This document shows positions 9,139 through 63,626 of a stretch of DNA of 64,000 nucleotides, in pieces. The notes under the pieces are model-generated. The model did no database searches. It was given only the letters and a program-made list of their open reading frames with translations, and was not told the DNA's origin. The stretch spans positions 24,615 through 88,614 of the forward strand of contig QZIM01000006.1 of NCBI GenBank assembly GCA_003599055.1, read 5' to 3'. The number at the start of each line of letters is the position of its first letter. The stretch's first letter is position 1. Origin of the DNA: Candidatus Woesearchaeota archaeon (GTDB taxonomy: Archaea > Nanobdellota > Nanobdellia > Woesearchaeales > ARS49). Both the position numbers and the translations under genes were made by a program.

Positions 9139-9568
9139 AAGAACTGCACAAGAGACCCTCTTTAAAAGGATTTATCACTACAGAACGTGAGTGACTGTTC
9201 TTCGACGAGAGAAAAGTCAAAAAACGCGTTCGTTTTGGGCACCAGAAAACAGAAGTCTCACTTTTCAGCACATCCAGATAAAATGAAAGCGAATACCGTT
9301 CTATGAACCCGTACACGCAAAAACACATAGTGCCTACATTTGACTGCTGCCGCCCATCAGCCCCCCACTCACAAGCACCACACAAACCACAGAACCCTCA
9401 CTTCTCCTGAAGCAAAAATGCAACAACTCCCCCCGTCCATCAAAAAAAAAACCGCGCCGCCCGTTTCTAAACAAAACCTGTTTGCACCACACGATGCTCA
9501 AGAAAACCGAGCACCACACCACTCCTCCCAAACACTCACAAAACGCACACGGAAAACCCACTGCAAAA

Positions 9569-9669
9569 TAGGCACCAGAAAATATCCAAGTGCGTCGCCA
9601 ATAACCCCGGAAAAACACCTCTGATTTAACGCTCACTTTTCACGAACAAAAATTAACCAAAAGTGAGAC
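9569..9669 (+). repeat. Three-block repeat, copy R1 (TAGGCACCAGAAAA / GGAAAAACACC / AAAAGTGAGAC)
   Basis: Block A lies at 9569-9582, block B at 9609-9619 and block C at 9659-9669. An inverted block C (CTCACTTTTC) lies at 9632-9641. A-to-C spacing is 89 nt, the same as copy R3. Confidence 0.7.
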
Positions 9670-9960
9670 CCAAAAAATAACTGCAAAAAATAGATTCTAA
9701 AGTGAATTTAAAAAAATAACTTATTTGAAAAATATTTTGAAACCTATCTTATTAAAAATAATTTTTATAAAAGAAATAAACAAAACTTGAGAAAAATAAA
9801 CCTTCAACAAAACTTAAAAAAATTTGAAAAATTCACGGAAAACCACTCAGAAACGACCCAGTAACGCATAAGTTCAACTGATAAAATCAGATAACACTGA
9901 CAGAAAAAATCCAAGAATTAAATTAAGTGAAAAAAGGAGAATTGACAAAAAAAAAGAAAC
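9640..9960. other. Extremely AT-rich non-coding core (candidate DNA-unwinding or plasmid-type origin region)
   Basis: A spot count of 9721-9780 gives 6 G+C in 60 nt, against about 60 % in flanking genes. There is no credible ORF. It sits inside a 1.45-kb non-coding stretch. Confidence 0.5.
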
Positions 9961-10593
9961 CGAATCTGCTCCCACACCGTCACTACCACGAATCTCCCTC
10001 ACTCATCACGCTACGCGCACGCTGCGGCCAAAAAGAGGCACGAACTCGCGCAAAAAGAGAGGAAAACACTGCCCAAAAAAAATCCCCGCAAATCGACTAA
10101 AAAAGAGGTTTACGAAGATGACAGGAAAAATACCCGAATTTGCGCACGTGTGCAAGAGTTGCAAATGTTTGGCGCGGCACCTTGGGTTTAGGCGCGAAAC
10201 CCCCTGACCTTCAATGTCGGAAAAATGGGCGAAAGTCGGATGAAATTCCGTCTCCGACGGAGAAACAGCAGAAAGTGCCGGTTTTGAAAAACCCACCGGC
10301 AGAACCAGATGGCAAAAAGTGTCGGAACTTTTGGCGAATTCTAAGCCAGTTCAGCGAAAAAACAACAGTTGAAATGCTGTGCAACTCATCTTTACCAAAA
10401 AAGTGCGCCAGAATTGATTTAATGAAGAATTCGGCGTTTTTTGCGCGTTAAAATTTTGCTGAAAAAAATTAAGATAATAATTTGCTGTCAAAGATGAAAA
10501 AATGTTGCGTCGGCAAGACTGCGACACTGGACAGGCGTTATCGGAAAACTTTTAACCGCCGGCGCGATTCACTGACTTCAAAAGGTGACCGTA

Positions 10594-11136
10594 ATGGAAT
10601 TCCTCCTCGAACACGCAGAACCCATCAGCTCAGACGTCCACGAACTCTCCAAAGTACTCCTTGCACGATTCGGCCTTTTGCCGCGCAAAAAAGACGGCTC
10701 GGCAAAAATGCACACCCTCCTCCTCGAACTCAACGAGAGAAAAAAACGCGCAAACCGCGACCGCCAACCCGAAACCGCCGTCATGCCCGTCGAAGAAATG
10801 GCCCTTCACGCCGGCATCAAGCGACAAACCATGTACGACTACCTGCACCGCTGGCTCTCGCTTGGCATTTTGAAAAAAACAAGCTTTGTCAGCTCAGGAA
10901 AAGTCATCGTCGGCTACGAGCTCAACGGGCCCACCCTCGACGGAGCATTCCGCAAGGCAGAAAACGCGCTCAAAAACCACCTCGACTACAGCTTCAAAGT
11001 CCTCGAACAGTTGCAAAACGAAATCAAAAAAGAAAAATTGAGAGAAATCAGCAGCGCATCCAGCACGTCAGCGGAGCATCAAGGCCAAGCACGTTCTTCT
11101 TCGCCTGAACCTCCCGAAACACCGCATCAACCCTGA
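10594..11136 (+). CDS. Winged-helix DNA-binding protein
   Basis: wHTH-like segment EEMALHAGIKRQTMYDYLHRWLSLGILKK..G.. with a low-complexity tail. ATG at 10594 (the track gives GTG 10585). The 3' end overlaps the convergent gene by 89 nt. Confidence 0.55.
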   Translation: MEFLLEHAEPISSDVHELSKVLLARFGLLPRKKDGSAKMHTLLLELNERKKRANRDRQPETAVMPVEEMALHAGIKRQTMYDYLHRWLSLGILKKTSFVSSGKVIVGYELNGPTLDGAFRKAENALKNHLDYSFKVLEQLQNEIKKEKLREISSASSTSAEHQGQARSSSPEPPETPHQP

Positions 11137-11590
11137 CAAAAACCGCATTCCCGTCGTGACGCTTCACCAGGGGAACACCCTTCTCAAGCATCGACCCGAT
11201 GGCCGCGCACACCTGCTCACGCGAGAGCAAGGATTTTCGCGCAACCTGCTCATACGACGCATACGGCTGGGTTTCCGTCAGACGATACAGAACGGAAAAC
11301 ACTTCCTTTTCCTTGCCCGAAAGCGGCTGCACGCAAAATTCCGGCTGCGCCTTTTGGCCCTTGACGAGCAACGTCAACTCGTCGAGCCGCTCGGCAAGCG
11401 CGTCCAGGCGACGGTTTACCGCGCCCAGCATCTCGTACGTTTGCGCCTGCTCCTGCGTATTCTCGTTAATTGCGAGCCGGTGGTCTTCAAGCTCACCCTG
11501 CACGCACTCGAGCACCTGCACGAGCTTGTGGCGTATCACGGACACATCACCCGATAGCAATAGCTGCTCTTGGTTCTGAATGCAAATCAC
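11048..11590 (-). CDS. Coiled-coil plus C-terminal winged-helix protein
   Basis: N-terminal heptad region (LEDHRLAINENTQEQAQTYEML..LDALAERLDELTLL). C-terminal wHTH-like segment KEVFSVLYRLTE..SYEQVARKSLLSREQVCAAIGSMLEKGV. GTG start. Confidence 0.55.
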   Translation of the reverse strand: MICIQNQEQLLLSGDVSVIRHKLVQVLECVQGELEDHRLAINENTQEQAQTYEMLGAVNRRLDALAERLDELTLLVKGQKAQPEFCVQPLSGKEKEVFSVLYRLTETQPYASYEQVARKSLLSREQVCAAIGSMLEKGVPLVKRHDGNAVFVRVDAVFREVQAKKNVLGLDAPLTCWMRC

Positions 11591-11772
11591 CCCGATTTAC
11601 AACGATGGAAAACAGGAGAGGGGCACTGGTTTAAATGGGTTTGGGTGTGGAAAAAAATAATGTCGGCGATTTTTTCGACGATAAAAAAGCGCACGCGGCG
11701 TCAGAAAAACGCGCCAAAAAACGGCAAGAAATGCGCCAAAAAATCGCGAAAAAAAATTCAAAAAAACAACGG

Positions 11773-12483
11773 TTATGCGTGCCTTTCGTGCTTCGCACTC
11801 GCCACATAAATCGTGTGCTTGCCATCGGAGACTACCTGCAGCAGATGTTCCCGCTCCATCTCTTCCAGAATGCGGTAAAAGCTCGACTTGCTGCACAGGC
11901 CCTGCTCCTCGACGATAATCTCGCGCATCTGGAGCGCGCCGATACGGCCGTATTTGTGCACAAGCGAGAGCGCCAAATTCTTGATGTACTCCTTGCTGTT
12001 TCGCGCAAGCTTGCGCGCAAGCTTTTCCTTGATTGCCGCACGGGACTCTTCCCTCGAAGAAACCGGCACTTCCTTTCGCTCACTTTCAGCGCTGGCGCTA
12101 GGATGCTTCTCGACTAAAGGGTGGCCGAGTACGTGCGCGCGCTGCTGGCTGCGCAGCTCCACCGCGTCGATTTTTTGCTCAATGTGCCGGATGCGCTGCA
12201 AAATCGGCTCCACATTGTAGTGCGCATCGACGAGCTGGCGAATCTCGCCCGCCGTCTTCGGCACGTGCTGGAGCGCAACACGCAACTCGTGCAACGAGAG
12301 CTTTTGCTCGTCAACAAGACGGCGCAGGACGCTGTTGTGCTCCTGCAACTGCTGATTTTGCTGGTGCAAATACGCAACCCACTGGTACAGCGCATCCGTG
12401 TCCTTCTTGACCTTTGAAAACGACTGCGAAACGGACTCATCCATTTCCTGAATTTGCTTCCCGTACCCAAATAAGTCGAACAT
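11773..12483 (-). CDS. Coiled-coil plus C-terminal winged-helix protein (same architecture as 11048..11590)
   Basis: Start moved to MFDLFGYG (12483), which lies 27 nt downstream of a TATA box. Long heptad region, then the wHTH-like LVHKYGRIGALQMREIIVEEQGLCSKSSFYRILEEMEREHLL. Confidence 0.6.
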   Translation of the reverse strand: MFDLFGYGKQIQEMDESVSQSFSKVKKDTDALYQWVAYLHQQNQQLQEHNSVLRRLVDEQKLSLHELRVALQHVPKTAGEIRQLVDAHYNVEPILQRIRHIEQKIDAVELRSQQRAHVLGHPLVEKHPSASAESERKEVPVSSREESRAAIKEKLARKLARNSKEYIKNLALSLVHKYGRIGALQMREIIVEEQGLCSKSSFYRILEEMEREHLLQVVSDGKHTIYVASAKHERHA

Positions 12484-12505
12484 ACCCCGAGGAAACGCGC
12501 AGTCC

Positions 12506-12519
12506 TTTAAATATTTTTT
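12506..12519 (-). promoter_or_regulatory. TATA box for the wHTH gene 11773..12483
   Basis: The minus strand reads AAAAAATATTTAAA, centred about 27 nt upstream of the ATG at 12483. The first iteron starts 5 nt further upstream. Confidence 0.6.
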
Positions 12520-12523
12520 GCCA

Positions 12524-12850
12524 GACCGTCCCAGGACCGTCTCAGGACAGTCTCTGGGACCGGACCGTCCCACGACGTTAATCGCCTTAAACGGAGAAAA
12601 AATACGCACGAAACAGTCTCAAGACCGTCCCAATAAGACCAATAGTCCCGAAAAAAGACCATCCCAAAGATAGTCCCAGAGACAGTCCCAAGCCAATTTA
12701 TCGACGATAAACTGAATTGAGACCAATTTGGGACTGTCCGAACCAGTCTTAAGACCGTCCTGCGACTGTTTTGCGACATTCCCAGGACCGTCCCACGCAA
12801 AATTATCGACGATAAACCATTGGGACCGAGACAATCCTGAGACTATCGCA
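12524..12850. repeat. Iteron-like array of GAC(C/A)GTC(C/T)CA decamers plus a duplicated palindrome-containing unit
   Basis: Copies start at 12524, 12535, 12546, 12563, 12612, 12623, 12657, 12669, 12681, 12753 and 12786. An inverted copy lies at 12729-12738 and degenerate copies at 12830 and 12841. TTATCGACGATAAAC occurs at 12698-12712 and 12803-12817. Confidence 0.85.
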
Positions 12851-13198
12851 AGACTTCCGGCGAAAAAAAGAGCCCGACCCAAAGGAGCAACCTCAAAAAA
12901 AGTTCGCACAAAAAGACTAGTCAAATAAAAAACCCCCCCCCCCGCCAAAAAAAACACCAAGAAGACCCAAAAGAAGCCCAAGAACGGCCATTGGCAAAAG
13001 CAGCAAACGCAAGGCACAAATTCCCAACTGGTGCCTAAAAAGAGCCGGAAAAAAGGCAGCACCCTGCAACCCCCGCAACCTGCAAAGCCAACCAGTGAAC
13101 ACGAATAAACGACCCACCAGGCTCAAAACACCAAAAACCAACTTTATTCGTAAAAAGTGAGAGTTCATTTGAGCAAAAAAAGAGCCACCGCGACCATT

Positions 13199-13302
13199 TT
13201 AGGCACCTGAAAAACGGAAAGCATAAAAGCACTTGCCCCCTTATGCACTTTATGACAACCAAAGGGGACGAAAAACACCACATTTGTTCAGAAAAAGTGA
13301 GA
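13199..13302 (+). repeat. Three-block repeat, copy R2 (degenerate copy of the rsmE 5' region)
   Basis: TTAGGCACCTGAAAA at 13199-13213, GAAAAACACC at 13270-13279 and GAAAAAGTGAGA at 13291-13302. A-to-C spacing is 92 nt. Confidence 0.65.
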
Positions 13303-13995
13303 ACTCGCTTGTACCGCCCAGAGGCAGAATCAGGAAGAACCATTGCGCTCACGAACGAACAAATTAGGCACCTGAAAGTACTTCGCACTGAAAAACACCA
13401 CCACGTCCACGTGTTTGACGGCAAAGGACACGAATACTGCGCCACGCCTTCGGAAAAAGTGAGAGACGCAATTGAAGTTGGGCACTATGTGAAAACTGCA
13501 ACTGAGCCCCCCATTACAATCACACTTGCAACCGCGGCACCCAAGGGAAACAGAATGGACACGCTCGTTGAAAAAGTGAGTGAACTTGGCGTGAAAAAAC
13601 TAGTGCCTATTATTTTTGCGCGAAGCGTGGTCGAGCCGGGCGCGAGCAAAATCGAGCGCCTCCAACGCATTGCCATCGAAGCCTGCGCACAAAGCAACAG
13701 AACCATTGTTCCGGAAATCACCGCCCCAACAGCATTTACCGCCTTACTCGAAAAAGTGAGAGAAGCCAAAACCGCCCTTGTTTGCCATAAGAGCGGACAA
13801 GCACTTGATAAAATAGCCATTACAAACACAAGCGACGTACTTGTCATCATCGGCCCCGAAGGAGACTTCACCCCTGAAGAACTCGCCAACCTTGAAAAAG
13901 CAGGCTGCAAAAAAGTGCGGCTTGCCCCATCAACCTTACGCGTGGAAACCGCCGCAATCACCGCACTCGCCCAGCTCGCAAGCAAACATTTATAA
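13243..13995 (+). CDS. rsmE: 16S rRNA (uracil-N3)-methyltransferase, RsmE family
   Basis: ITLATAAPKGNRMDTLVEKVSELGV, ERLQRIAIEACAQSNR, VIIGPEGDFTPEE and LRVETAAI match RsmE/DUF558. The family-typical N-terminus begins near the in-frame GTG at 13297 (VRTRLYRP), so the true start may be 13297. Confidence 0.8.
   Translation: MHFMTTKGDEKHHICSEKVRTRLYRPEAESGRTIALTNEQIRHLKVLRTEKHHHVHVFDGKGHEYCATPSEKVRDAIEVGHYVKTATEPPITITLATAAPKGNRMDTLVEKVSELGVKKLVPIIFARSVVEPGASKIERLQRIAIEACAQSNRTIVPEITAPTAFTALLEKVREAKTALVCHKSGQALDKIAITNTSDVLVIIGPEGDFTPEELANLEKAGCKKVRLAPSTLRVETAAITALAQLASKHL
13365..13464 (+). repeat. Three-block repeat, copy R3 (inside the rsmE coding sequence)
   Basis: TAGGCACCTGAAA at 13365-13377, GAAAAACACC at 13390-13399 and GAAAAAGTGAGA at 13453-13464. 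A-to-C spacing is 89 nt. Confidence 0.65.
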
Positions 13996-18710: not shown

Positions 18711-19078
18711 GCGAAGAATTCTTTCGCGTGATTGCCGGCACACAAGGCATTTATGCCGCAGTTGAGCGCGACTGTCCGCGAAATGATGCACGCAGAAAAA
18801 ACAAGCCGGACGGCAGCTGGCTCCCAAAAGAAGGACCAAAACACCCCGGCGCAATCTCGTTTTGGAAAGAGTTCGGACTTCAGAAGTATATTGCTTCAGG
18901 GCTTCTTGGCTGGCACGCCTTCGTTGTCAAAGAGCCAATTCAGGTACAAATCATATCACGACCGCCAAAAATCCTGCACGAAGACGACTACCAAATAATT
19001 TGCATACCTGCGGATGTTCAGATTCTGCGCGAAGAGCCGCTTGAACAATTTCTCGCGCATAGGACGGTCCCAGAATAG
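18707..19078 (+). CDS. Hypothetical protein
   Basis: 123-aa ORF with a 4-nt overlap with the upstream gene. Confidence 0.45.
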   Translation: MSEEFFRVIAGTQGIYAAVERDCPRNDARRKNKPDGSWLPKEGPKHPGAISFWKEFGLQKYIASGLLGWHAFVVKEPIQVQIISRPPKILHEDDYQIICIPADVQILREEPLEQFLAHRTVPE

Positions 19079-19117
19079 GACTCGGGACCATCTCATTCTT
19101 GGAAATTTTCCGAAATA

Positions 19118-19399
19118 TTGAACGACAGGTTTAAGAATACAATTCCCTCCTTAACCAATATGAATACTGAAACTATCCAAATTCACAAGAAAGAAACTTC
19201 CAAGAACAAACTCTTGGAAGATATTACGCTCCCGCTTGAACTTGGACTGGAAGCCATACGCGCAGGAAAAGTCAAGCGCGTACGACATCTTGTGCGACCT
19301 GAAATTAAAGACGACCTTCTCTGGCAGCTTGAAGAAAGCCTAAAAGACATCAAAGCGGGCAGAGTGACTCTGTTCAAACCCTCAACGAAGCAACGCTAA
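19118..19399 (+). CDS. Small protein with an antitoxin-like C-terminus (tentative)
   Basis: The C-terminal LEESLKDIKAGRV resembles the tails of several type II antitoxins. Local sequence is AT-richer. Convergent 18-nt overlap with the RelE-like ORF. Confidence 0.35.
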   Translation: MNDRFKNTIPSLTNMNTETIQIHKKETSKNKLLEDITLPLELGLEAIRAGKVKRVRHLVRPEIKDDLLWQLEESLKDIKAGRVTLFKPSTKQR

Positions 19400-32956: not shown

Positions 32957-34114
32957 TTATTTGTTTTGTTCATTGTTTAACGCTGCGCCCTGATCCCCAT
33001 CAAGAAATATTATGAATTCTTTGAGGAGTTGAAGACAAAACTCTGCCTCAGATTTACTAGTCTCCTGAGTTAGCCTCTGAAAATTGTGTTTCATAAAATC
33101 TTCTGGTTCTATTGATAGCTTCTCGCTTATTGACTTATTGAGACGTGTGCGATCCATGTGCGAATATGTGTTTCTTATCTCACCAAACAAATTCAGCCGT
33201 TTCGAGAAATCAGGAACTTTAGACCCTATCAAATCAATAATTCCTATTTTTTTAACTATGCTTTGTAAAGCATTCAACTCCAGTCGATCCACAATCAATC
33301 CTACTTCATTATACAATGTTTCGTCTTCAATCTGGTGACAAACTCTATTTTGAATTGATCTTTTCAATAAATGTTCCATACACGCTGCCGAGCATATGAT
33401 TGATGCAACGTAGTTTCCCAGGATGAATGACGTGTGAGCTTCATTGTATAGATAAACACCCAATTCATAGTATTCAGAGTAAAGCAATTCAGGAAACGGG
33501 ATCTTGTCCAAGTTGCTAATGAAAGCAGGCGCACTCTTCTCAAAAAAGCTCTTCAATGACAATTCGGATGCCTTTTCCTTAGAATAACTATTTAGAATAT
33601 TGACATATAGCGGCGGTAGAGGTTGGACGTGACTTTCGGCGAGTGTTGAAAAAATCATCTCATTGAAGATTGCTTCGTTATTGAGTAGCTTTCTCACAAA
33701 CTCATCTACTGCATTTTTAATCGCTAAATCGGATTTACCGCTGACTATGATTCGCAAATGATTGAATTTGTCTTTGAATGCTAAAACGAATCCATCTCGT
33801 ATTTTGAGTTCCTTGTCAAAACCATGTTCTTTTATTGCTTTCAAAACCCACTTATTCGTTTGACTGTCACCAACACAAATCAAGTCAGAGTTGTAATAAT
33901 CTTCATCGGTCAATTCCGAGGCTAATTTTGCAGAATTTATTGACAACACTTGCTTTGAATGTGAATACAAAAGAGTCTGCACTGTTTGAATAAGTGCAAC
34001 TGCAAAGACAACCATGATTCCTTTGTCATTATCTCCCACCGTGATAATTAAGGGGTTCTTGGAGGACTTAAGGAAATCGGCGACTTTCTCTTGACCCTGT
34101 TCAGATGTCATCAC
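32957..34114 (-). CDS. HEPN-domain protein with an N-terminal alpha/beta domain of unknown function
   Basis: The C-terminal half has AACMEHLLKRSI ... LFGEIRNTYSHM, which contains the canonical HEPN R-N-x3-H motif. The N-terminal half has three strand-Gly motifs (LIITVGDN, LICVGDS, RIIVSGKS). No signal peptide. Confidence 0.6.
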   Translation of the reverse strand: MMTSEQGQEKVADFLKSSKNPLIITVGDNDKGIMVVFAVALIQTVQTLLYSHSKQVLSINSAKLASELTDEDYYNSDLICVGDSQTNKWVLKAIKEHGFDKELKIRDGFVLAFKDKFNHLRIIVSGKSDLAIKNAVDEFVRKLLNNEAIFNEMIFSTLAESHVQPLPPLYVNILNSYSKEKASELSLKSFFEKSAPAFISNLDKIPFPELLYSEYYELGVYLYNEAHTSFILGNYVASIICSAACMEHLLKRSIQNRVCHQIEDETLYNEVGLIVDRLELNALQSIVKKIGIIDLIGSKVPDFSKRLNLFGEIRNTYSHMDRTRLNKSISEKLSIEPEDFMKHNFQRLTQETSKSEAEFCLQLLKEFIIFLDGDQGAALNNEQNK

Positions 34115-34124
34115 GGCCTCGCAA

Positions 34125-34319
34125 TTATCTAATGACTCTTTTTGCCACGCTTACGATTCCCAAGAACCCGAGCACGATCCCAATGAAAACACCTGCAAAG
34201 ACCGCCAAATTTCCCGCGCCGGGTGAAATGCCAGTTGCTTGCAAGATGATGCCTGCAACCACAAGAGTGCCTACGATGCCTGTCGCACCTAAACCAAGAC
34301 CGAAGATTTTTTGTGCCAT
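34125..34319 (-). CDS. Gly-rich 2-TM small membrane peptide
   Basis: 64 aa with two Gly/Ile/Val-rich helices containing GxxxG-like spacing. It sits 1 nt after the upstream stop and 10 nt before the downstream start. Confidence 0.55.
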   Translation of the reverse strand: MAQKIFGLGLGATGIVGTLVVAGIILQATGISPGAGNLAVFAGVFIGIVLGFLGIVSVAKRVIR

Positions 34320-34320
34320 T

Positions 34321-34602
34321 TTATCGGCCTTTGTTCCAGTATCCTTTGCGCCTCAATCTTGTGTTTATTGATCCATCGCCGTTTGACATAGTGACAACAC
34401 TTCGACCATAGCTTTTTCCTACCACTTGCACGTTGACGTAACCGTTTGAGCGGCTTGTCATTCCTGCAGCAGTTCTTGTTGCCTTAGAGCCTCCAAACTG
34501 GTGTTTTTCAGGGGCGCGTACATTCGCCAGCCGGAAGGGGGTTCCATCCGTAAAATAGCCCGAGTCACCATCATGCCAGTGATCAATTCGTTTTCGTTTC
34601 AT
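34321..34602 (-). CDS. Minimal SNase/thermonuclease-like protein (93 aa)
   Basis: HDGDSGYF...FRLANVRAPE...KSYGRSVV...G.INTRLRRKGY is co-linear with staphylococcal nuclease DGDT..FRL..VDTPE..DKYGR....G..VN..LVR.G. The Asp of D-T-P-E is replaced by Arg. Start at 34602 with GGAGGT 8 nt upstream. Confidence 0.6.
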   Translation of the reverse strand: MKRKRIDHWHDGDSGYFTDGTPFRLANVRAPEKHQFGGSKATRTAAGMTSRSNGYVNVQVVGKSYGRSVVTMSNGDGSINTRLRRKGYWNKGR

Positions 34603-34813
34603 TTTATTAACCTCCAAGGGTTCAATACTTTCCCGCAGGCTGTGAAGTATAAAAAGGTTATGAATTAAGCCATAATGAAAATCAACAATGTGACTTAAAA
34701 CGTTACTTATTTGACAAACATTGTACAACTATTTACGGTTTAGTCCACAATGAACAGAAACGCTTATAAATTAAACCTTCAAACTACTCAAAAGTGGGGG
34801 TAAAAGTTTAAGA

Positions 34814-35884
34814 ATGGGAATGAACACTTCTAAGGTTATGGGTGATACAACCCGTAAAAAGAGGGCTGATATCTTCAAAGACATAGTTGATAGCTTACGA
34901 AACGGCAGTCAAACAATACTTCAGATATCTAAAGCAACTGACATTAATTGGGAAACTGTAAAAAATTGTCTTGAAACGCTCAAAACGCTCAGTATCATTC
35001 AAGAAGAAGAAAAAAACGGAAAAACATTCTACTTCGTAGATGAAAGTAAGCTTATTCAAACTGAAGAGAACACTCTTTTGGGCTTGCCATTAACCGAAGA
35101 TCGAAAAAATGCAACATATGGTCTGTTCAAACGAATAATCGAACGATGGGAAAAGATACGCCCTGACCGAAAAATCAACAAGACATTTTTACATAAGATT
35201 CTGGTCAAGGTCGTCAAGAATAATGACAAGGATCTGAAATTCCCACATGGTTGGTATCTCTTTGGCGAGTGCGCAGTATTACAATGTGATCCAATGGACT
35301 GCAAAGAACAACCTTATCAAATTGGAACCGAATATGATGCAAAAATAGATGTGGTCGTAACTGAGTATTCTCAATTATCTTCAACACACGAGTTAATGCA
35401 AAGACAATATACTGACGAAGGGAATGAACTGTACACGTTGAGACTAAAAATCAGCGATAAACTTCTCAATAAATTCACCGAGACTTCAGTTCATGAACTC
35501 AAAAGAAGCCTCAAAGATTTTGTTTTCAGTTTCAAAAAAAATGAAGAAAACGAAGAACTCCTTGAATATTTGAATGGATTCCTTTCAATAGTTACTCGTC
35601 TTATCAATGGTCTTAAACTTGGAGAACTTGACGACATCAGACCAGTCATCAATGAAACGTTTATGTCAATTTGGGAGCTTCTTGCGACTTACAATCTTTA
35701 CAAATCTCTTGTCGAGCGCGGATACTACGAAAAGGCAACTATACGAAAATACTATACTCTACGCATGGGCAATTTGAAACACATTGCAGAAAGTTATCTA
35801 TCTGCACTACACGACTATTGCCCACCGTTACTAATCCCTCAAGAAGACCCACTGCGCAAGCTTATAACTCCTCAGGCATCCTGA
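34814..35884 (+). CDS. N-terminal winged-helix protein with a large uncharacterised C-terminal domain
   Basis: The wHTH-like segment is IFKDIVDSLRNGSQTILQISKATDINWETVKNCLETLKTLSII. The remaining roughly 280 aa have no recognised motif. The gene is divergent from the HEPN operon. Confidence 0.6.
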   Translation: MGMNTSKVMGDTTRKKRADIFKDIVDSLRNGSQTILQISKATDINWETVKNCLETLKTLSIIQEEEKNGKTFYFVDESKLIQTEENTLLGLPLTEDRKNATYGLFKRIIERWEKIRPDRKINKTFLHKILVKVVKNNDKDLKFPHGWYLFGECAVLQCDPMDCKEQPYQIGTEYDAKIDVVVTEYSQLSSTHELMQRQYTDEGNELYTLRLKISDKLLNKFTETSVHELKRSLKDFVFSFKKNEENEELLEYLNGFLSIVTRLINGLKLGELDDIRPVINETFMSIWELLATYNLYKSLVERGYYEKATIRKYYTLRMGNLKHIAESYLSALHDYCPPLLIPQEDPLRKLITPQAS

Positions 35885-36269
35885 TCTCAATAAGATTTCT
35901 GAACTCAGCAAAATCCTGAATGTTCCGCGTAACTATGCAAATTGCATTACCCTTTTTCGCCAAAACCACGTGCAAAGCATCAGGAAAGTTGTTATTTGAT
36001 AGTTCCCGAGCTTGTTTTTCATCGCCATCTGCTCTCAGAATGGTAATCACCTGCTCTTTTTTCAAATCACTAACTAACCTGTTAATCTCCTCTTCAGAAC
36101 GATACTTCTTGAACTCCTCAATAACCCAATCAGAAATAACCAACGAATACTCACCTTCTCTAATTTTACGAAAGACATTAAGCGCGAACTCACCTAAATC
36201 CCGGAAACGGTCTTTGCGACCTTCAAATAAGTCAATGTAGACATTAGTGTCTACGTAAATTTTATCCAT
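35862..36269 (-). CDS. PIN-domain (VapC-like) nuclease
   Basis: MDKIYVDTNVYIDL, ..ISDWVIEE.., DALHVVLA.. and CIVTRNIQDF supply the PIN acidic residues. No adjacent antitoxin ORF. Confidence 0.7.
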   Translation of the reverse strand: MDKIYVDTNVYIDLFEGRKDRFRDLGEFALNVFRKIREGEYSLVISDWVIEEFKKYRSEEEINRLVSDLKKEQVITILRADGDEKQARELSNNNFPDALHVVLAKKGNAICIVTRNIQDFAEFRNLIEIRMPEEL

Positions 36270-36356
36270 TGCCCGACTTATTCAGGAGGAATATAAAAAC
36301 ACTACTCCGGTTCACTATCAATAATTTTATAAGCAGCGTTCCTAAACTAAATCATA

Positions 36357-39062
36357 GTGAAAGAGCGCGCAAAAGAAAGGATTTCGCAGTTAGTCGCTAA
36401 ATATGAGCGTCTGAAAGCTGAAGGTAGATTGAAGTCCTATAATGAAGAGATGACGAAAAAGGACTTCATCCTTCCGTTATTCGAAGCGCTTGGATGGGAC
36501 GTTTATAATACGAATGTAGATGAAGTGTCTGCCGAAGAAAAAGTTTCCAAAGGACGCGTTGACTATGGATTTAGAATCGCGGGAATCCCCAAGTTCTTCC
36601 TTGAAGCAAAAGCCCTTAAAGCTGACCTTGAGGACCTAAAATGGGCTGAACAAGCAATCAATTACTCTTGGCACAAGGGCGTCGTTTGGGCAGTCCTTAC
36701 TGACTTTGAAACAGTTCGTGTATTCAATGCAGAAGTCAAAACTGCCAATCCTGCGCAAAGCCAATTCTTTGCTCTGTACACAAATCAATTTCTCGATAGA
36801 TTTGAGCAGTTATGGTTGTTATCCCACGAAAGTTTTGAAAAAGGCTTAATCAATGAAGAAGCAGAGAAATGGGGTAAAAAACTGAAGAAAATCCCTGTTG
36901 ATAAACAACTCCTTTCAGACTTCACTTCATTCAGGGAGTTGCTTTCTAAGAGCGTTTTAAAGAACAACCCACAGAAAAAACTCACTGAAGAAGATATCGA
37001 CGAGTCAGTGCAGAGGATACTTGACAGACTCATTTTCATTAGAACGACTGAGGACAAAGAGATTGAACCCCCGCACTTAATGCCTCTTCTGAGAGAAGAT
37101 ACTGGCAAAAGAGTTCTCAAGAAGTTAAACGTGCTTTTCAGATACTATGATGAAATCTATAACAGTAAATTGTTCCAGCCACACCTATGCGAAGACCTTG
37201 AGATTGATGATCACGTCCTAGAACACATAATTCAAGGTTTGTATTGTTCAAAAGAGTGGAGCATACACTACAACTTCGCCTTATTGGATGCTGACATTTT
37301 AGGAAGCATTTATGAGCAGTATTTGGGACACATTCTAAAGAAAACAGAAAAACGAGCTACGCTTACTGAAGGAAAAATACACAGAAAAGAACAAGGAATA
37401 TACTATACGCCCACATATATTGTTGATTACATCGTCAAGAACACCATTGGTGAATTGGCAAAAGACAAAAAGTTTGATATGGACAAGATAAAGATTCTCG
37501 ATCCTGCTTGCGGTTCAGGTTCATTCTTAATTAAAGCTTTTGACTTCCTCAATCAACATCATAGCAGAAAAGGAACTGGAGAACAGACAAAGATTGACAC
37601 AAGCGGAGTTGCCGCAACTTTTACTAAAAAACTCGAACTTCTCAAAAATAACATTTACGGCGTTGACTTGGACCCAAAAGCTGTTGAAATCGCGCAACTC
37701 AACCTCCTTCTAAAAGCAGCTGAGAAAAAGCATAGACTGCCAACACTCCAAAACAACATCAAATGCGGCAATTCATTAATAGACGACCCAAATATTGCAG
37801 GACAAAGGGCCTTCAAATGGGAGGATGAGTTCAGCACAATAATGAAAGACGGCGGATTTGATGTCGTGATTGGAAATCCGCCTTATGGCGCATCATTCAA
37901 TACTCAGGAAAAAGAATACTTCAATTCAAGATACACTTATGTAAAATCTGTTTATGAAAGTTACCGTTTATTCATAGAACTAGCTTCAAAATTAGTAAAG
38001 GATAGAGGATATATGGGGCTAATTGTCCCAAACACGTGGTTTTATTTAACAAATGCTGAAAACATGAGAAAGGAAATTTTGTCAAATTATTCAGTAACTA
38101 AATTGATTAATCTTCCACAAAGCGTTTTTGAGGATGCGACAGTCGATACTTGCATAATAATATTCAGAAAGGAACCTCCAAAAAATAATCAAGTTGAAAC
38201 TCACTTTTTTAATTATAAAGATAAAATTAACAGCCTTGAATGTATGAAATATTCTGAATTAAAGCAAAACGACTTTCTAAAAAATGCTGAATGCATAATT
38301 AATATCAATCGCAATGCAGAAGATGTTAAACTAATTTCAAAAATTAAAAAGCAACCTCAAGTTTTAGATGAGTATGTTACAATAATAACTGGGATAAAAC
38401 CATATCAAGTCGGAAAAGGTGTGCCTCCTCAAACAAAAAAGGATTTAGAGGAGAAAAACTTCACTGCAACTTATCAAAAAGATAAATCATTTAAACCTTG
38501 GTTAACTGGGAAATTTATCTCCAGATACCAAGTTTTACCAAATAAAGAATTCATAAAATATGGTGCTTGGCTTGCAGAACCAAAAATACCTGATATTTTT
38601 GAAAAGGATAGGATAGTTTTACAACAAATACGGAATCCCTCATTGCCCCGTCGTATTATTGCCACTTTTATTAAAGGGGGAATATATACTAATAATGGAA
38701 TTCATAATCTAATCCCGAAAAATGACGAGCAGACTTTTTGGATTCTTGGAATATTGAACTCTAAATTGATGAATTATTACTTTGCATCACATTACAATGA
38801 TGTAAATATCAAACCATCTAATTTATACAGTTTACCTTATCCTGTTTATGATAACAAATCAAAACTATCAGAACTCGTATCAAAAATTGTTTTTATCGGT
38901 CAAAAACTCACACAATTAGAAGGTAAACAAACCGATGAACAGGTTCAATTAGAAAAAGAATTCAAAAAATTGGATAAGGAAATCGATGAAAAAGTTTATG
39001 AAATATATGGCTTGAATGAATCTGAGCGAAAAGTAATAGAAGACCACCTCAAAAGTAACTGA
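36357..39062 (+). CDS. Type IIG restriction-modification fusion enzyme (PD-(D/E)xK nuclease + N6-adenine methyltransferase + specificity region)
   Basis: The N-terminus has HsdR_N-like FILPLFEALGWDV...GRVDYGF...FFLEAKA (D...ExK). Methyltransferase motif I is ILDPACGSGSFLI and motif IV is VIGNPPYG. 901 aa with a GTG start. Confidence 0.8.
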   Translation: MKERAKERISQLVAKYERLKAEGRLKSYNEEMTKKDFILPLFEALGWDVYNTNVDEVSAEEKVSKGRVDYGFRIAGIPKFFLEAKALKADLEDLKWAEQAINYSWHKGVVWAVLTDFETVRVFNAEVKTANPAQSQFFALYTNQFLDRFEQLWLLSHESFEKGLINEEAEKWGKKLKKIPVDKQLLSDFTSFRELLSKSVLKNNPQKKLTEEDIDESVQRILDRLIFIRTTEDKEIEPPHLMPLLREDTGKRVLKKLNVLFRYYDEIYNSKLFQPHLCEDLEIDDHVLEHIIQGLYCSKEWSIHYNFALLDADILGSIYEQYLGHILKKTEKRATLTEGKIHRKEQGIYYTPTYIVDYIVKNTIGELAKDKKFDMDKIKILDPACGSGSFLIKAFDFLNQHHSRKGTGEQTKIDTSGVAATFTKKLELLKNNIYGVDLDPKAVEIAQLNLLLKAAEKKHRLPTLQNNIKCGNSLIDDPNIAGQRAFKWEDEFSTIMKDGGFDVVIGNPPYGASFNTQEKEYFNSRYTYVKSVYESYRLFIELASKLVKDRGYMGLIVPNTWFYLTNAENMRKEILSNYSVTKLINLPQSVFEDATVDTCIIIFRKEPPKNNQVETHFFNYKDKINSLECMKYSELKQNDFLKNAECIININRNAEDVKLISKIKKQPQVLDEYVTIITGIKPYQVGKGVPPQTKKDLEEKNFTATYQKDKSFKPWLTGKFISRYQVLPNKEFIKYGAWLAEPKIPDIFEKDRIVLQQIRNPSLPRRIIATFIKGGIYTNNGIHNLIPKNDEQTFWILGILNSKLMNYYFASHYNDVNIKPSNLYSLPYPVYDNKSKLSELVSKIVFIGQKLTQLEGKQTDEQVQLEKEFKKLDKEIDEKVYEIYGLNESERKVIEDHLKSN

Positions 39063-39296
39063 TTTTTGGCAAAATAAACCAGTTGTCGATTTTTTAGCTC
39101 TGTCTGGGGACTGCTTTTCATCGTTGATACATTTCATCAAGCAGTTTGTTGTTGCATTATACTGTTTTGCCAGCTTATCCTTGAACTGGGTGCTCAAGCC
39201 AAGAAACTCCAAGATTTTCTGGTCTTTGAAAACTGAGTGCAACTCTCTCAAAACTATTCTGGTTCCCTTACCAGACGATAAATGACGGGATTTTCA

Positions 39297-39368
39297 AGCC
39301 TCCGGAGGGATTTGAACCCCCGACCTACTGCTTACGAAGCAGTCGCTCTGCCGCTGAGCTACGGAGGC
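39297..39368 (-). tRNA. tRNA-Thr (anticodon CGU)
   Basis: Folded by hand as GCCUCCG/CGGAGGC acceptor, GCUC/GAGC D stem, ACUGC-UUCGUAA-GCAGU anticodon arm and GGGGG-UUCAAAU-CCCUC T arm. No encoded CCA. Confidence 0.9.
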
Positions 39369-46543: not shown

Positions 46544-47419
46544 ATGAAATTCCTCATTATCGGAGACCTGCACGGCCACAAACCGAATATTTACTTCAAA
46601 GAATTTGACGCAATCATTGCCCCCGGCGACTTCTGCTCGGACGCACCCCGCGCGTGGATGTTCAAGGCACTCAAAGACCAACTCGCCAGCGCAAAAAGCA
46701 AAACAACCTGGTACGGCCTTGTCGGCAGAAAAAAAGCCAAAAGAATGGTCCAAAAAAGCCTTGCAGACGGCCGCGCAATCCTTGAATACCTTAACTCATT
46801 TGGCAAGCCAGTTTATGCAGTCCCCGGAAATTGGGACTGGACCGGCAAAGAATCAGACTGGACATTCATCAAGAAAAATTACTGGCCCCGGCTCATCAGG
46901 GACCTTAATAATGTTGTAGACTTGCACCATAAAACAGCCATTTCAAACGGAATCACTCTTCTCGGACACGGCATCATATCAGGACCAGAATACCCACAGG
47001 ACCCTGCGGAAAAAAAGAGACTTACCGACTCAGGAGAACTTGACTCCGTTAAAAAAAGCTACATCCGCCAAAAATCAATTGTCACAAGACTCTTTTATGA
47101 TGCAAAATCACCCGTCATCTTTATCCCGCACAACGTCCCCTACAACACGCCCCTTGACCAAATCAACAACCCCGCATCACCACGCAACGGGCAACACTTC
47201 GGCTCAGTCATTGCAAGAGAAATGATATACCGATTCTCACCCCTTGTCTGCATCGGCGGACACATGCACGAACACTTCACCCACTGCAAACTCGGGAAAA
47301 CCCTGTGCATCAACGCAGGATTCGGGCCTCACGTCAACGTCCTTCTTGAGATTGAAGGAGACACCGTGAAAAAAGTTGAATTCTCCAAGGCGGGCAAGAT
47401 TGTTGAGACAATCAGTTAA
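46544..47419 (+). CDS. Calcineurin-like metallophosphoesterase
   Basis: MKFLIIGDLHG, PGNWDW and GGHMHE metal-binding motifs. Confidence 0.75.
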   Translation: MKFLIIGDLHGHKPNIYFKEFDAIIAPGDFCSDAPRAWMFKALKDQLASAKSKTTWYGLVGRKKAKRMVQKSLADGRAILEYLNSFGKPVYAVPGNWDWTGKESDWTFIKKNYWPRLIRDLNNVVDLHHKTAISNGITLLGHGIISGPEYPQDPAEKKRLTDSGELDSVKKSYIRQKSIVTRLFYDAKSPVIFIPHNVPYNTPLDQINNPASPRNGQHFGSVIAREMIYRFSPLVCIGGHMHEHFTHCKLGKTLCINAGFGPHVNVLLEIEGDTVKKVEFSKAGKIVETIS

Positions 47420-62394: not shown

Positions 62395-63579
62395 CTATAC
62401 CTTTGCCAACCACTCTGCCTCTTCCTCAGACAACGAGAGCTCTTCAGAGATTTTGGCAGCAGACGGGTGCCCTGCCTGATAAACACGCTGCAAAAGGCCC
62501 ACCGGCAGGAGCGCCTTCTTTCCCGAACAATGCATTACCCGACCCAATTTTAATGAAACTTCCTTTCGCTTTGCATACTTTTGGTTCGCCATCCACCGCT
62601 TCAAAATACGCTGCGTTCGCTGGTACTGCACAAACTGGCCGGACTTTTTGTCCTTTGCCACCGCAACACCCGCAGTCATAAGCACGTTCACGTATGCAAG
62701 GAAGCGCCAGTACTGCCAACGCTTAATACGCCCCTTAAATACATCCGCACGCGAGAGGCACTCCATCGCCCGCGCCAAATCCCGACCCGCGTACTCCCTT
62801 GGCATATTCTCATCAACCCACAACATACACTCATCAATATCCTCGCCCACCGAGTCAAATGCCGAAAGCGCAACCTGCGGGTCAGTTGACTTGAGAATCT
62901 TAATCAACGCCTGCATCATACTCTCCTCGCGCTGACGCTCGTGCAGCGAATTGAGCGCAGCAACATCAAACCCCTGTGCTGACAAGACCTGCGCATCAAT
63001 AATCGCTCCGCGAATATCCCCACCGCTCCGCCTTGCCAAGGCCTTTAGCACATCATCCGATGCGACGAGCCGTTCACTGTGCACGATTCTTTTCAGCACA
63101 TCCGCAAGCTTTAACGCAGGCACCGCAGGAAACTCAACCAGCACACACTTTGACCGAAGCGAACTGAGCTTTTGATTATACGGGTCATTTGCCACCAAAA
63201 TCAACGGAAAAGCAGCATCTTTCACCAAATCAACAAGCGCACCAACACCCCCCCTGTCCTGATTTCCCGCAATCCCGTCAACCTCATCCACCAAAATTAA
63301 CTTGCCCGAACCGAACAAACTGTACTGCTTTAACGCCTGACCCACTTTTGCGTGAATCTCATCAGCACTCCGAAAATCAGACGCATTCACTTCCACCAGC
63401 TCAAGACCGAACTCTTTGGCAATTGCAACCACCGCAGCAGTCTTTCCCGAACCGCTCGGGCCGTGCAGCAACACCGCCTTCTTTTTCTGCTTCTTAAAAT
63501 CCCGCACGAAATTCAAAAGAGGAGAAGTGTCCTGCGGAATTTCCGCCACCTTTGGTGCATACTTGTGCGTCCAGAGCAT
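62395..63579 (-). CDS. rfcL: Replication factor C large subunit
   Basis: LWTHKYAPK, Walker A LLHGPSGSGKT, Walker B LILVDEVDG. I set the start at the MLWTHKY Met (63579). Confidence 0.88.
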   Translation of the reverse strand: MLWTHKYAPKVAEIPQDTSPLLNFVRDFKKQKKKAVLLHGPSGSGKTAAVVAIAKEFGLELVEVNASDFRSADEIHAKVGQALKQYSLFGSGKLILVDEVDGIAGNQDRGGVGALVDLVKDAAFPLILVANDPYNQKLSSLRSKCVLVEFPAVPALKLADVLKRIVHSERLVASDDVLKALARRSGGDIRGAIIDAQVLSAQGFDVAALNSLHERQREESMMQALIKILKSTDPQVALSAFDSVGEDIDECMLWVDENMPREYAGRDLARAMECLSRADVFKGRIKRWQYWRFLAYVNVLMTAGVAVAKDKKSGQFVQYQRTQRILKRWMANQKYAKRKEVSLKLGRVMHCSGKKALLPVGLLQRVYQAGHPSAAKISEELSLSEEEAEWLAKV

Positions 63580-63626
63580 AAGAAAAAAAAAGAAGCACAC
63601 CAGTACTTAAGGTTTTGGCGCGCACA

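Follow-up and report, generated by a model that had tools for sequence, protein, structure and literature searches.

The 64,000-nucleotide stretch of Candidatus Woesearchaeota DNA analyzed here (contig QZIM01000006.1, hereafter the window) carries an intergenic array of short repeats at 12523-12848. On one side of it lies a two-gene operon encoding coiled-coil proteins with winged helix-turn-helix (wHTH) or helix-turn-helix (HTH) heads, wHTH1 (11773..12483, minus strand, 236 aa) and ccHTH2 (11048..11590, minus strand, 180 aa); a third gene, wHTH3 (10585..11136, plus strand, 183 aa), converges on ccHTH2. On the other side stands the divergent gene for an RsmE-type rRNA methyltransferase (13243..13995, plus strand), followed by Rpo11, h166, UPP synthase and L1/L10. 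The array is most likely a non-coding protein-binding site that acts at the DNA level and is conserved across Woesearchaeota.

The repeat array

The array comprises about 13-16 units in both orientations together with two palindromes. The units share the core GTC(C/T)CA, and the full unit reads GAC[C/A]GTC[C/T]CA. The exact decamer GACMGTCYCA has seven matches in the whole 64 kb, all inside a 272-nt segment of the array (12524-12795), where dinucleotide-shuffled versions of the full 64 kb lead one to expect 0.32 and none of 100 shuffles reaches seven. When up to one mismatch is allowed, 13 copies fall within 12524-12847 (starts at 12524, 12535, 12546, 12563, 12612, 12623, 12657, 12669, 12681, 12775 and 12786 on the plus strand, and at 12729 and 12838 on the minus strand), and the decamer is rare elsewhere, with eight more copies in the other 63.7 kb. 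The count of at least 12 copies given in a preliminary description of this DNA therefore holds for the mismatch-tolerant decamer but not for the exact one. Over the whole window the loose hexamer GWCYCA shows no excess (74 occurrences versus 92 expected), whereas 13 GTCYCA hexamers crowd into 316 nt of the array, which marks a local array rather than an oligonucleotide bias.

The units are arranged in small groups. The promoter-proximal cluster (12523..12574, plus strand) contains units at 12524, 12535 and 12546 in 11-nt steps, a further unit at 12563 and an inverted one at 12553-12565. It is followed by a pair of units 11 nt apart (12611..12634, plus strand, starts 12612 and 12623), a triplet in 12-nt steps (12656..12692, plus strand, starts 12657, 12669 and 12681), a group of inverted units (12716..12739, minus strand) made up of the hexamer GTCTCA at 12718-12723 and a decamer at 12729-12738, a second pair 11 nt apart (12775..12797, plus strand; GACATTCCCA at 12775 and GACCGTCCCA at 12786), and two inverted units that close the array (12819..12848, minus strand; 12819-12831 and 12836-12848). 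A repeat finder recovers both triplets of the preliminary description with their 11- and 12-nt steps, and its inverted copy at 12729-12738 is likewise reproduced. The larger unit of about 45 nt that it reported as duplicated 105 nt apart is found as a 32-nt duplicate at that distance with 88% identity (12681-12712 and 12786-12817). The repeat finder also returns a perfect 11-nt inverted copy (12681-12691 with 12728-12738). The inverted units at 12553-12565, 12819-12831 and 12836-12848 and the GTCTCA hexamer had been overlooked. The array is not CRISPR, as already stated in that description: its units are 10-11 nt long, abut one another and occur in both orientations, unlike the 24-48-nt repeats and spacers of such loci.

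The second component is a 13-bp palindrome, TTATCGACGATAA (TTATCG-A-CGATAA), already part of the preliminary description and present in two exact copies at 12698-12710 and 12803-12815. The first copy (12698..12710) lies between the convergent units 12681 (plus) and 12729 (minus), and the second (12803..12815) lies inside the 105-nt-spaced duplicate of 12681-12712. Outside the array, a further copy with one mismatch (TTTTCGACGATAA, 11672..11684) precedes the TATA-like box of ccHTH2 by about 35 nt.

At its proximal end the array meets an archaeal-type promoter of wHTH1 (12505..12521, minus strand), which can be read from the sequence as TATTTAAA joined to an A-rich tract resembling a transcription factor B recognition element (BRE); the two precede the ATG at 12483 by about 25-35 nt. 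On the wHTH1 strand the order is TGGGACGGTCT-GGCAAAAAA-TATTTAAA-(~23 nt)-ATG; the strand reads ...TGGGACGGTCTGGCAAAAAATATTTAAAGG...ATG, with the first unit a few bases past the A/T block at 12506-12520. The proximal repeat unit adjoins the BRE-like A-tract, about 10 nt from the TATTTAAA box.

The three HTH proteins

The three neighboring genes had been described as DNA-binding (w)HTH genes, and their predicted folds and HTH matches agree. The start of wHTH1 is placed at ATG 12483 and not at GTG 12609, since most homologues start there with MFDLFG or a close variant. The protein consists of a coiled coil (residues 4-118), a disordered linker (120-143) and a helix followed by a winged helix (144-228). 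In the AlphaFold2 model (pLDDT 81) these regions resolve into helices 4-72, 78-88 and 92-118, a disordered stretch 120-143, a helix 144-178 and the winged helix to residue 228. wHTH1 falls in none of the Pfam or NCBIfam families: in Pfam at E ≤ 0.1 it draws just coiled-coil noise and two weak winged-helix matches far under the cut-offs. For all three HTH proteins, sequence searches of Pfam, NCBIfam and the PDB return coiled-coil noise or weak HTH matches only. wHTH1 has 375 relatives at E ≤ 0.001 in a large protein collection, of which the few that are named are mostly 'hypothetical protein' from Woesearchaeota/Nanoarchaeia, and a profile search of 1.8 billion representatives yields 549 representative clusters of relatives, all unnamed.

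Structurally, Foldseek matches wHTH1 to generic winged helices only, most of them DNA-binding. The E values stay at or above 0.003, and Fur, Hop2, ArsR/SqrR, MarR, TubR and AspA are among the matches. TubR (6aht) is one among many such matches (E = 0.019, TM-scores 0.22/0.45). The recognition helix (EEQGLCSKSSFYRILEE in the window) has a core, SKSSFYR, that is invariant in every intact sequence from the related loci described below. Its flanks vary conservatively only, while the rest of wHTH1 falls to about 32% identity. This invariant core matches the invariance of the TCCCA core of the repeat units, which, judged from sequence, makes wHTH1 a candidate binder.

ccHTH2 combines a coiled coil with a C-terminal HTH, which is matched by HTH_11 in eight of the family's 23 members and, among PDB entries, by heads of GerE/DtxR type. 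A paralogous relationship between wHTH1 and ccHTH2 was considered and found to be unsupported (hhalign probability 5.7%). wHTH3 pairs a winged helix with a long C-terminal helix, and its fold is nearest to Lrs14/AbfR2, TrmB-N and TFE-alpha. Its family counts 762 relatives, again with the few named members annotated as 'hypothetical protein', and it shows 60-83% identity where wHTH1 has 32-40%.

Conservation across Woesearchaeota and Nanoarchaeia

Conservation was assessed in 80 Woesearchaeota/Nanoarchaeia loci that encode wHTH1 relatives (one genome per species), which together with the window give 81 loci. The array is kept at the same chromosomal spot in most of the 80 related genomes, within the order L10-L1-UPP synthase-h166-Rpo11-(RsmE), array, wHTH1-ccHTH2, wHTH3, PAC2. 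ccHTH2 directly follows wHTH1 in 79 of the 81 loci, and wHTH3 is present in 46. In the 300 nt upstream of wHTH1, GTCYCA/TGRGAC occurs at 1.8-2.7 per 100 nt, versus about 0.07 elsewhere in roughly 700 kb. Because TTCCCA is commoner than GTCCCA in many distant lineages, the shared core is better written (G/T)TCCCA; it is enriched about 30-fold upstream of the orthologous gene, and the enrichment persists down to about 32-35% wHTH1 protein identity. No more than one array is seen per locus, with 13-19 units, and nearly no unit clusters occur elsewhere in the ~700 kb of flanks.

The units also keep to a helical register. The distance between neighbors of like orientation has a sharp maximum at 11 nt, which accounts for 110 pairs, and its harmonics lie at 21-22, 32-33 and 43-44 nt. 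Pairs of opposite orientation follow 11-nt series as well: those that diverge are 7 nt (forming the palindrome TGGGAC-N-GTCCCA), 18 or 29 nt apart, and those that converge are 15, 26 or 37 nt apart; an extra convergent peak at 10 nt (15 pairs) lies outside the series. This 11-bp register places all units on one side of the helix, whichever their orientation. In one clade, represented by a ten-genome alignment (A2), the array fills exactly the space between two divergent TATA boxes, that of wHTH1 keeping its position throughout. The ~300 nt between the boxes align over their full length with 72% mean identity, and are interrupted by three independent indels of exactly 11 nt each, by which whole units have been gained or lost. 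Such indels indicate that the register is under selection and that the stretch is non-coding. Two minus-strand open reading frames (ORFs) in the window, 12507..12800 and 12619..13062, one of which is called as a gene on a Logan contig, were rejected as coding sequences, since related arrays differ by 11-nt indels.

The palindrome is conserved too. Across the 80 loci, TTATCG-N-CGATAA at up to one mismatch has 27 matches 100-200 nt upstream of wHTH1 and about ten further matches 35-100 nt upstream of ccHTH2; more distal matches are mostly coding coincidence, for example in the Rpo11 N-terminus (IIDDK). Convergent units stand on either side of the palindrome both in the window and in the aligned clade, so that palindrome and units form a symmetric composite element. 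Covariation between variants of the palindrome half-site and the ccHTH2 recognition helix was sought, and no pattern emerged.

These comparisons leave very little room for repeats that work at the RNA level, as a non-coding RNA or leader (a protein sponge, for example), or for a neutral minisatellite, either of which we regard as extremely improbable. Both strands fold much better than shuffled sequences (z = -7.5 and -7.7), as an RNA element would, but the signal is symmetric on the two strands, as DNA inverted repeats give, and the predicted pairs are invariant motif copies with an unfavorable covariation term (+1.04). The units also occur in both orientations, and no Rfam family matches the array, the window giving tRNAs only. 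The use of both orientations, the TGGGAC-N-GTCCCA palindromes, the lack of covariation and the equal folding of both strands all argue for action at the DNA level, and conservation over 80 genomes with phase-preserving 11-nt indels excludes neutrality.

Two scans went beyond the related genomes. Among the matches listed in a metagenome scan for four TCCCA at 11-nt spacing, most are perfect 11-nt tandem repeats of unrelated origin, and four are Woesearchaeota loci, all beside wHTH1-ccHTH2. A scan of viral contigs for three GTCCCA at 11 nt returned 109 contigs (L082-L190), none encoding wHTH1, ccHTH2 or wHTH3. The viral arrays (e.g. L119, L148, L164 and L183) were set aside as unrelated phage iterons, with TGTCCCA, TGTCCCACC or TTAGTCCCAA units flanking AT-rich centers.

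Chromosomal context and the question of an origin

The locus is chromosomal and does not belong to a plasmid: the window holds housekeeping genes (Rpo11, L1, L10, RFC, GatDE, the CCA-adding enzyme and tRNA genes), and synteny to Rpo11, UPP synthase and L1/L10 extends across the 80 genomes. This setting bears on the earlier proposal of an iteron-type replication or partition locus. The helical phasing and the HTH neighbors on which that proposal drew stand, and neither of the findings named there as refuting it, a decamer frequent elsewhere or an array not conserved among related genomes, was obtained; the replication half of the proposal, however, is not supported.

As a replication origin, the array would supply iterons or initiator sites resembling origin recognition boxes (ORBs), with the HTH proteins as initiators or origin-binding factors. 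Phased direct and inverted copies, a palindrome and winged-helix genes alongside would fit such a role, as would two AT-rich features: about 110 nt of very AT-rich sequence adjoining the distal array end in the related locus L021 (4610-4720), which has no counterpart in the window, and a gene-free 1.45 kb with 90% AT segments that lies 2.5-3 kb away in the window. We nevertheless consider an origin very unlikely, and the evidence at hand does not point to a terminus either. Neither Orc1/Cdc6, MCM nor Rep was found among the larger window proteins scanned or the conserved neighbor clusters, the protein at 62395-63600 being the RFC large subunit. No Rep-family initiator gene (WH1-WH2) stands beside the array, by Pfam and NCBIfam matches or by fold, the AlphaFold2 model of wHTH1 being a coiled coil with a single wHTH. 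The array itself offers no AT-rich unwinding element: counted per 60 nt, AT makes up 43-57% of 12460-13100, and the highest value, 0.70, comes at 13122. The (G/T)TCCCA unit appears unlike the ORB dyad, and a Methanothermobacter-type mini-ORB word occurs at chance level.

Strand composition points the same way. The skew is exceptionally strong: the plus strand is C- and A-rich, and third-codon-position GC and AT skews (GC3 and AT3) have the same sign for genes of both orientations (GC3 -0.47 and AT3 +0.32 for plus-strand genes, -0.36 and +0.41 for minus-strand genes), which indicates a strand-wide bias independent of the direction of transcription. No skew switch is seen in the 71 kb or more covered by the window and L311 (7 kb past its left edge), which extend 19.6 kb from the array in one direction and 51 kb in the other; none is present at 12.5 kb or 9.7 kb. 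By comparison, a peaked skew pattern of bacterial type has been reported for a DPANN archaeon (PMC7111523).

Proposed role of the array

The interpretation that we favor, with moderate confidence, is that the adjacent wHTH proteins bind the array cooperatively and that it serves as an operator through which the flanking promoters are controlled. The likeliest binders would be the products of the adjacent operon, namely wHTH1, perhaps with ccHTH2 as partner. The coiled coil could keep two or more heads together and supply both avidity and lateral contacts, and a flexible linker would let each wHTH1 head dock on a unit in either orientation, which would account for the tolerance of both unit orientations. 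Neighboring molecules would then fill the array cooperatively and form a nucleoprotein filament over the intergenic region. Since the array ends at the BRE/TATA of wHTH1, and in one clade also at the divergent TATA box, such a filament would set flanking transcription: that of wHTH1-ccHTH2 by autoregulation and, in relatives, also that of the operon on the RsmE/Rpo11 side. The 13-bp palindrome, with its copies upstream of ccHTH2, may be a second operator for a rigid dimer. What the data show are the repeats with their phasing and conservation, the folds of the proteins and the chromosomal setting; the identity of the binder, its cooperativity and the regulatory outcome are what we infer here.

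Several points weigh against this operator model. The putative link between wHTH1 and the motif draws on adjacency and co-conservation only, and 13-19 sites are far above the need of simple autoregulation. In the window the array lies about 395 nt from the RsmE start, which makes control of the divergent promoter doubtful in this genome. The uniqueness of the array was examined in the 64 kb of the window and ~700 kb of flanks. wHTH3 surpasses wHTH1 in overall conservation and is a possible binder in its place. A further objection comes from three related loci (L059, L069 and L079) whose wHTH1 gene is inverted but has kept its place. The wHTH1 stop codon is directly followed by the array in L059 and L069; in L079 no cluster of three or more units is seen. 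Locus L059 (1122-2660), read in detail, has the inverted wHTH1 diverging from ccHTH2 over a 46-nt spacer, and the array starts at the wHTH1 stop. Arrays beyond the stop of an inverted wHTH1 indicate that the array is not solely the gene's own operator, and point to a role beyond repressing wHTH1.

The inverted loci also bear on an alternative in which wHTH3 or an unlinked factor occupies the array as an operator or enhancer for the housekeeping genes on the Rpo11/ribosomal-protein side, with wHTH1 a mere neighbor. The array remains on the Rpo11 side when wHTH1 is inverted, and wHTH3 combines extreme conservation with an Lrs14/TrmB-like wHTH fold. In 35 of the 81 loci, however, no wHTH3 is detected inside 5 kb, although several of them (for example L025 and L068) still have repeats; the wHTH3 promoter region in the window contains no repeat units, and wHTH1 and ccHTH2 are the only genes that always adjoin the array. 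We consider a different binder improbable and retain wHTH1, with ccHTH2, as the candidate of the operator model.

The number of units and the persistence of the array outside the wHTH1 promoter raise another alternative, a chromosomal centromere-like or organizing site on which the two coiled-coil HTH proteins would build a helical complex of segrosome type, used for segregation, cohesion or the loading of other factors, with promoter control as a by-product. Thirteen to 19 units at 11-bp phase match parC/tubC in size and geometry, both partner proteins have long coiled coils, and no locus shows more than one array. A Xer/integrase-type tyrosine recombinase is encoded near the locus in 22 of the 80 genomes, about 2 kb downstream of wHTH1 (e.g. 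L059 23-841, L065 6691-7341); this neighbor is absent from the window. Proteins of KfrA type, moreover, join repeat-operator binding with plasmid stability (PMC7783346). Set against this, no partition NTPase (ParA, ParM, TubZ or SegA-type) was found in the window or the conserved neighborhood, the operon consists of wHTH1-ccHTH2 only, and the exact fit of the array between two divergent TATA boxes in one clade is explained by regulation alone. The partition half of the earlier proposal has no motor gene in its support, and we hold a centromere-like site to be an unlikely but serious contender. Its most specific form, a Woesearchaeota chromosomal centromere or organizing centre at which two lineage-specific proteins form a kinetochore-like filament on some 15 sites without a ParA/ParM/TubZ motor, is more doubtful still.

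The system is of interest on either the operator or the centromere-like interpretation. DPANN lineages such as Woesearchaeota are uncultured, and their gene regulation and chromosome maintenance are very poorly understood. Here, a sharply defined DNA element is paired with unannotated DNA-binding families, beside core transcription and translation genes, throughout a clade. The pairing makes a protein-DNA system concrete enough for in-vitro tests that need no culture, and the element is usable as a lineage marker for Woesearchaeota contigs. If it is only an operator, it would represent a striking filament-type promoter control in archaea; if it is centromere-like, it would represent a new motor-less system of segregation or organization in ultra-small DPANN cells. 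Full-text literature searches on Woesearchaeota/DPANN origins, ORBs, GC skew and coiled-coil HTH or centromere-binding proteins returned no description of the element or of its protein families.

Further features of the window and related loci

Outside the array, the best-scoring unit is an isolated copy, GGACGGTCCCAGA, at 19062..19074 (plus strand, 16.6 bits), which lies within the near-palindrome TAGGACGGTCCCA and is a possible secondary site; the second best is at 46830-46842 (13.9 bits). The near-palindrome and GGGACCATCTCA occupy an intergenic segment (19059-19095) upstream of a 79-aa ORF (19160-19399) with faint RelB/ParD-like similarity.

Between the array and RsmE lies a 390-nt A/C-rich spacer with a homopolymer-rich tract, aaaaaacccccccccccgccaaaaaaaa, at 12928-12946. 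The 144 nt before the RsmE ATG (13099-13242) are open in the RsmE frame and lack a start codon; they resemble a degenerate tandem duplicate of the RsmE N-terminus (LFV...FRHLK), and a similar pseudo-copy is present in L021.

A third locus-specific motif, AAAGTGAG (9257-13760), has 10 copies in the window versus 2.9 expected, nine of them around the three HTH genes. In 21 related loci a longer box, AAAAAGTGAGAGTTCA with TTAGGCAC after it, shows nucleotide-level conservation 400-960 nt upstream of wHTH1, where it often occurs more than once and often precedes a start codon by 10-15 nt; the copy at 13152-13173 is identical to that of L021 at 22 of 22 positions. This motif (box AAAAGTGAGAGTTCA) may be the binding site of wHTH3.

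The gene-free region mentioned above (9140-10585) spans 1.45 kb without a convincing gene. In about 150 nt of it (9690-9830) the AT content reaches 85-90%, and at 9631-9668 it has the perfect 9-bp inverted repeat CTCACTTTT/AAAAGTGAG. No skew switch coincides with this region. Farther away, a low-GC island (33000-39300; 30-43% GC versus ~52%) without strand skew ends at tRNA-Thr (39297-39368). The island is probably an element that integrated recently, and it includes a gene (36357-39062) for a 901-aa type IIG restriction-modification protein of Eco57I/MmeI-like type. Among the related loci, most of the long contigs (L003-L042) end 5-70 kb past the PAC2 side, probably at a feature that breaks the assemblies; it may be an rRNA operon or a variable island.

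Comparison with known systems

Iteron origins (RepA/RepE/pi) and archaeal oriC (ORB plus Orc1/Cdc6) share with this locus direct and inverted repeats beside winged-helix genes. The repeat period here is about 11 bp, versus the usual 17-22 bp of iterons, and unlike these origins the locus has no initiator-family protein, no DNA unwinding element and no skew switch, and lies among housekeeping genes.

In the plasmid centromeres parC (type II) and tubC (type III), the operon for the binder (ParR or TubR, the latter a winged-helix protein) has about 7-10 repeats of 11-12 bp at its promoter or around it. The binder occupies them cooperatively from one face of the helix and thereby forms a superhelical complex. 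The Woesearchaeota array resembles them in having at least seven repeats of 11-12 bp at the promoter of a putative binder operon. Unlike parC/tubC, it has units in mixed orientation and no actin-like or tubulin-like motor gene, wHTH1 is three times larger and carries a coiled coil, and the locus is chromosomal and clade-wide, not part of a mobile replicon. Among archaeal site-specific binders, AspA (pNOB8) and SegB (SegAB) spread or oligomerize from sites upstream of their own operons, and the AspA wHTH fold is among the Foldseek matches of wHTH1 (5k5q, 4rs8). Those systems use one or two palindromic start sites and ParA-type ATPases, whereas here a long phased array occurs with no ATPase.

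The closest likeness is to KfrA of the broad-host-range plasmids RA3, RK2 and R751, a coiled-coil HTH autoregulator whose five direct-repeat binding sites overlap the kfrA promoter. It has a helical partner, KfrC, and autoregulatory and DNA-maintenance roles have both been proposed (PMC7783346). Like KfrA, wHTH1 has a long coiled coil with an HTH head, a repeat array as putative operator at its own promoter and a helical partner encoded nearby. The two differ in that KfrA has an N-terminal HTH, five 9-bp repeats, a plasmid location and the partners IncC/KorB, whereas the wHTH of wHTH1 is C-terminal and its 13-19 units lie at 11 bp in both orientations on an archaeal chromosome; in Pfam, wHTH1 has no sequence match to the KfrA family. 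By analogy, the locus would work most like a KfrA/KfrC operator, and also like parC/tubC, while appearing to belong to none of these families. It represents a new variation on the theme of the phased-repeat operator or centromere, tied to protein families that have so far gone unannotated.

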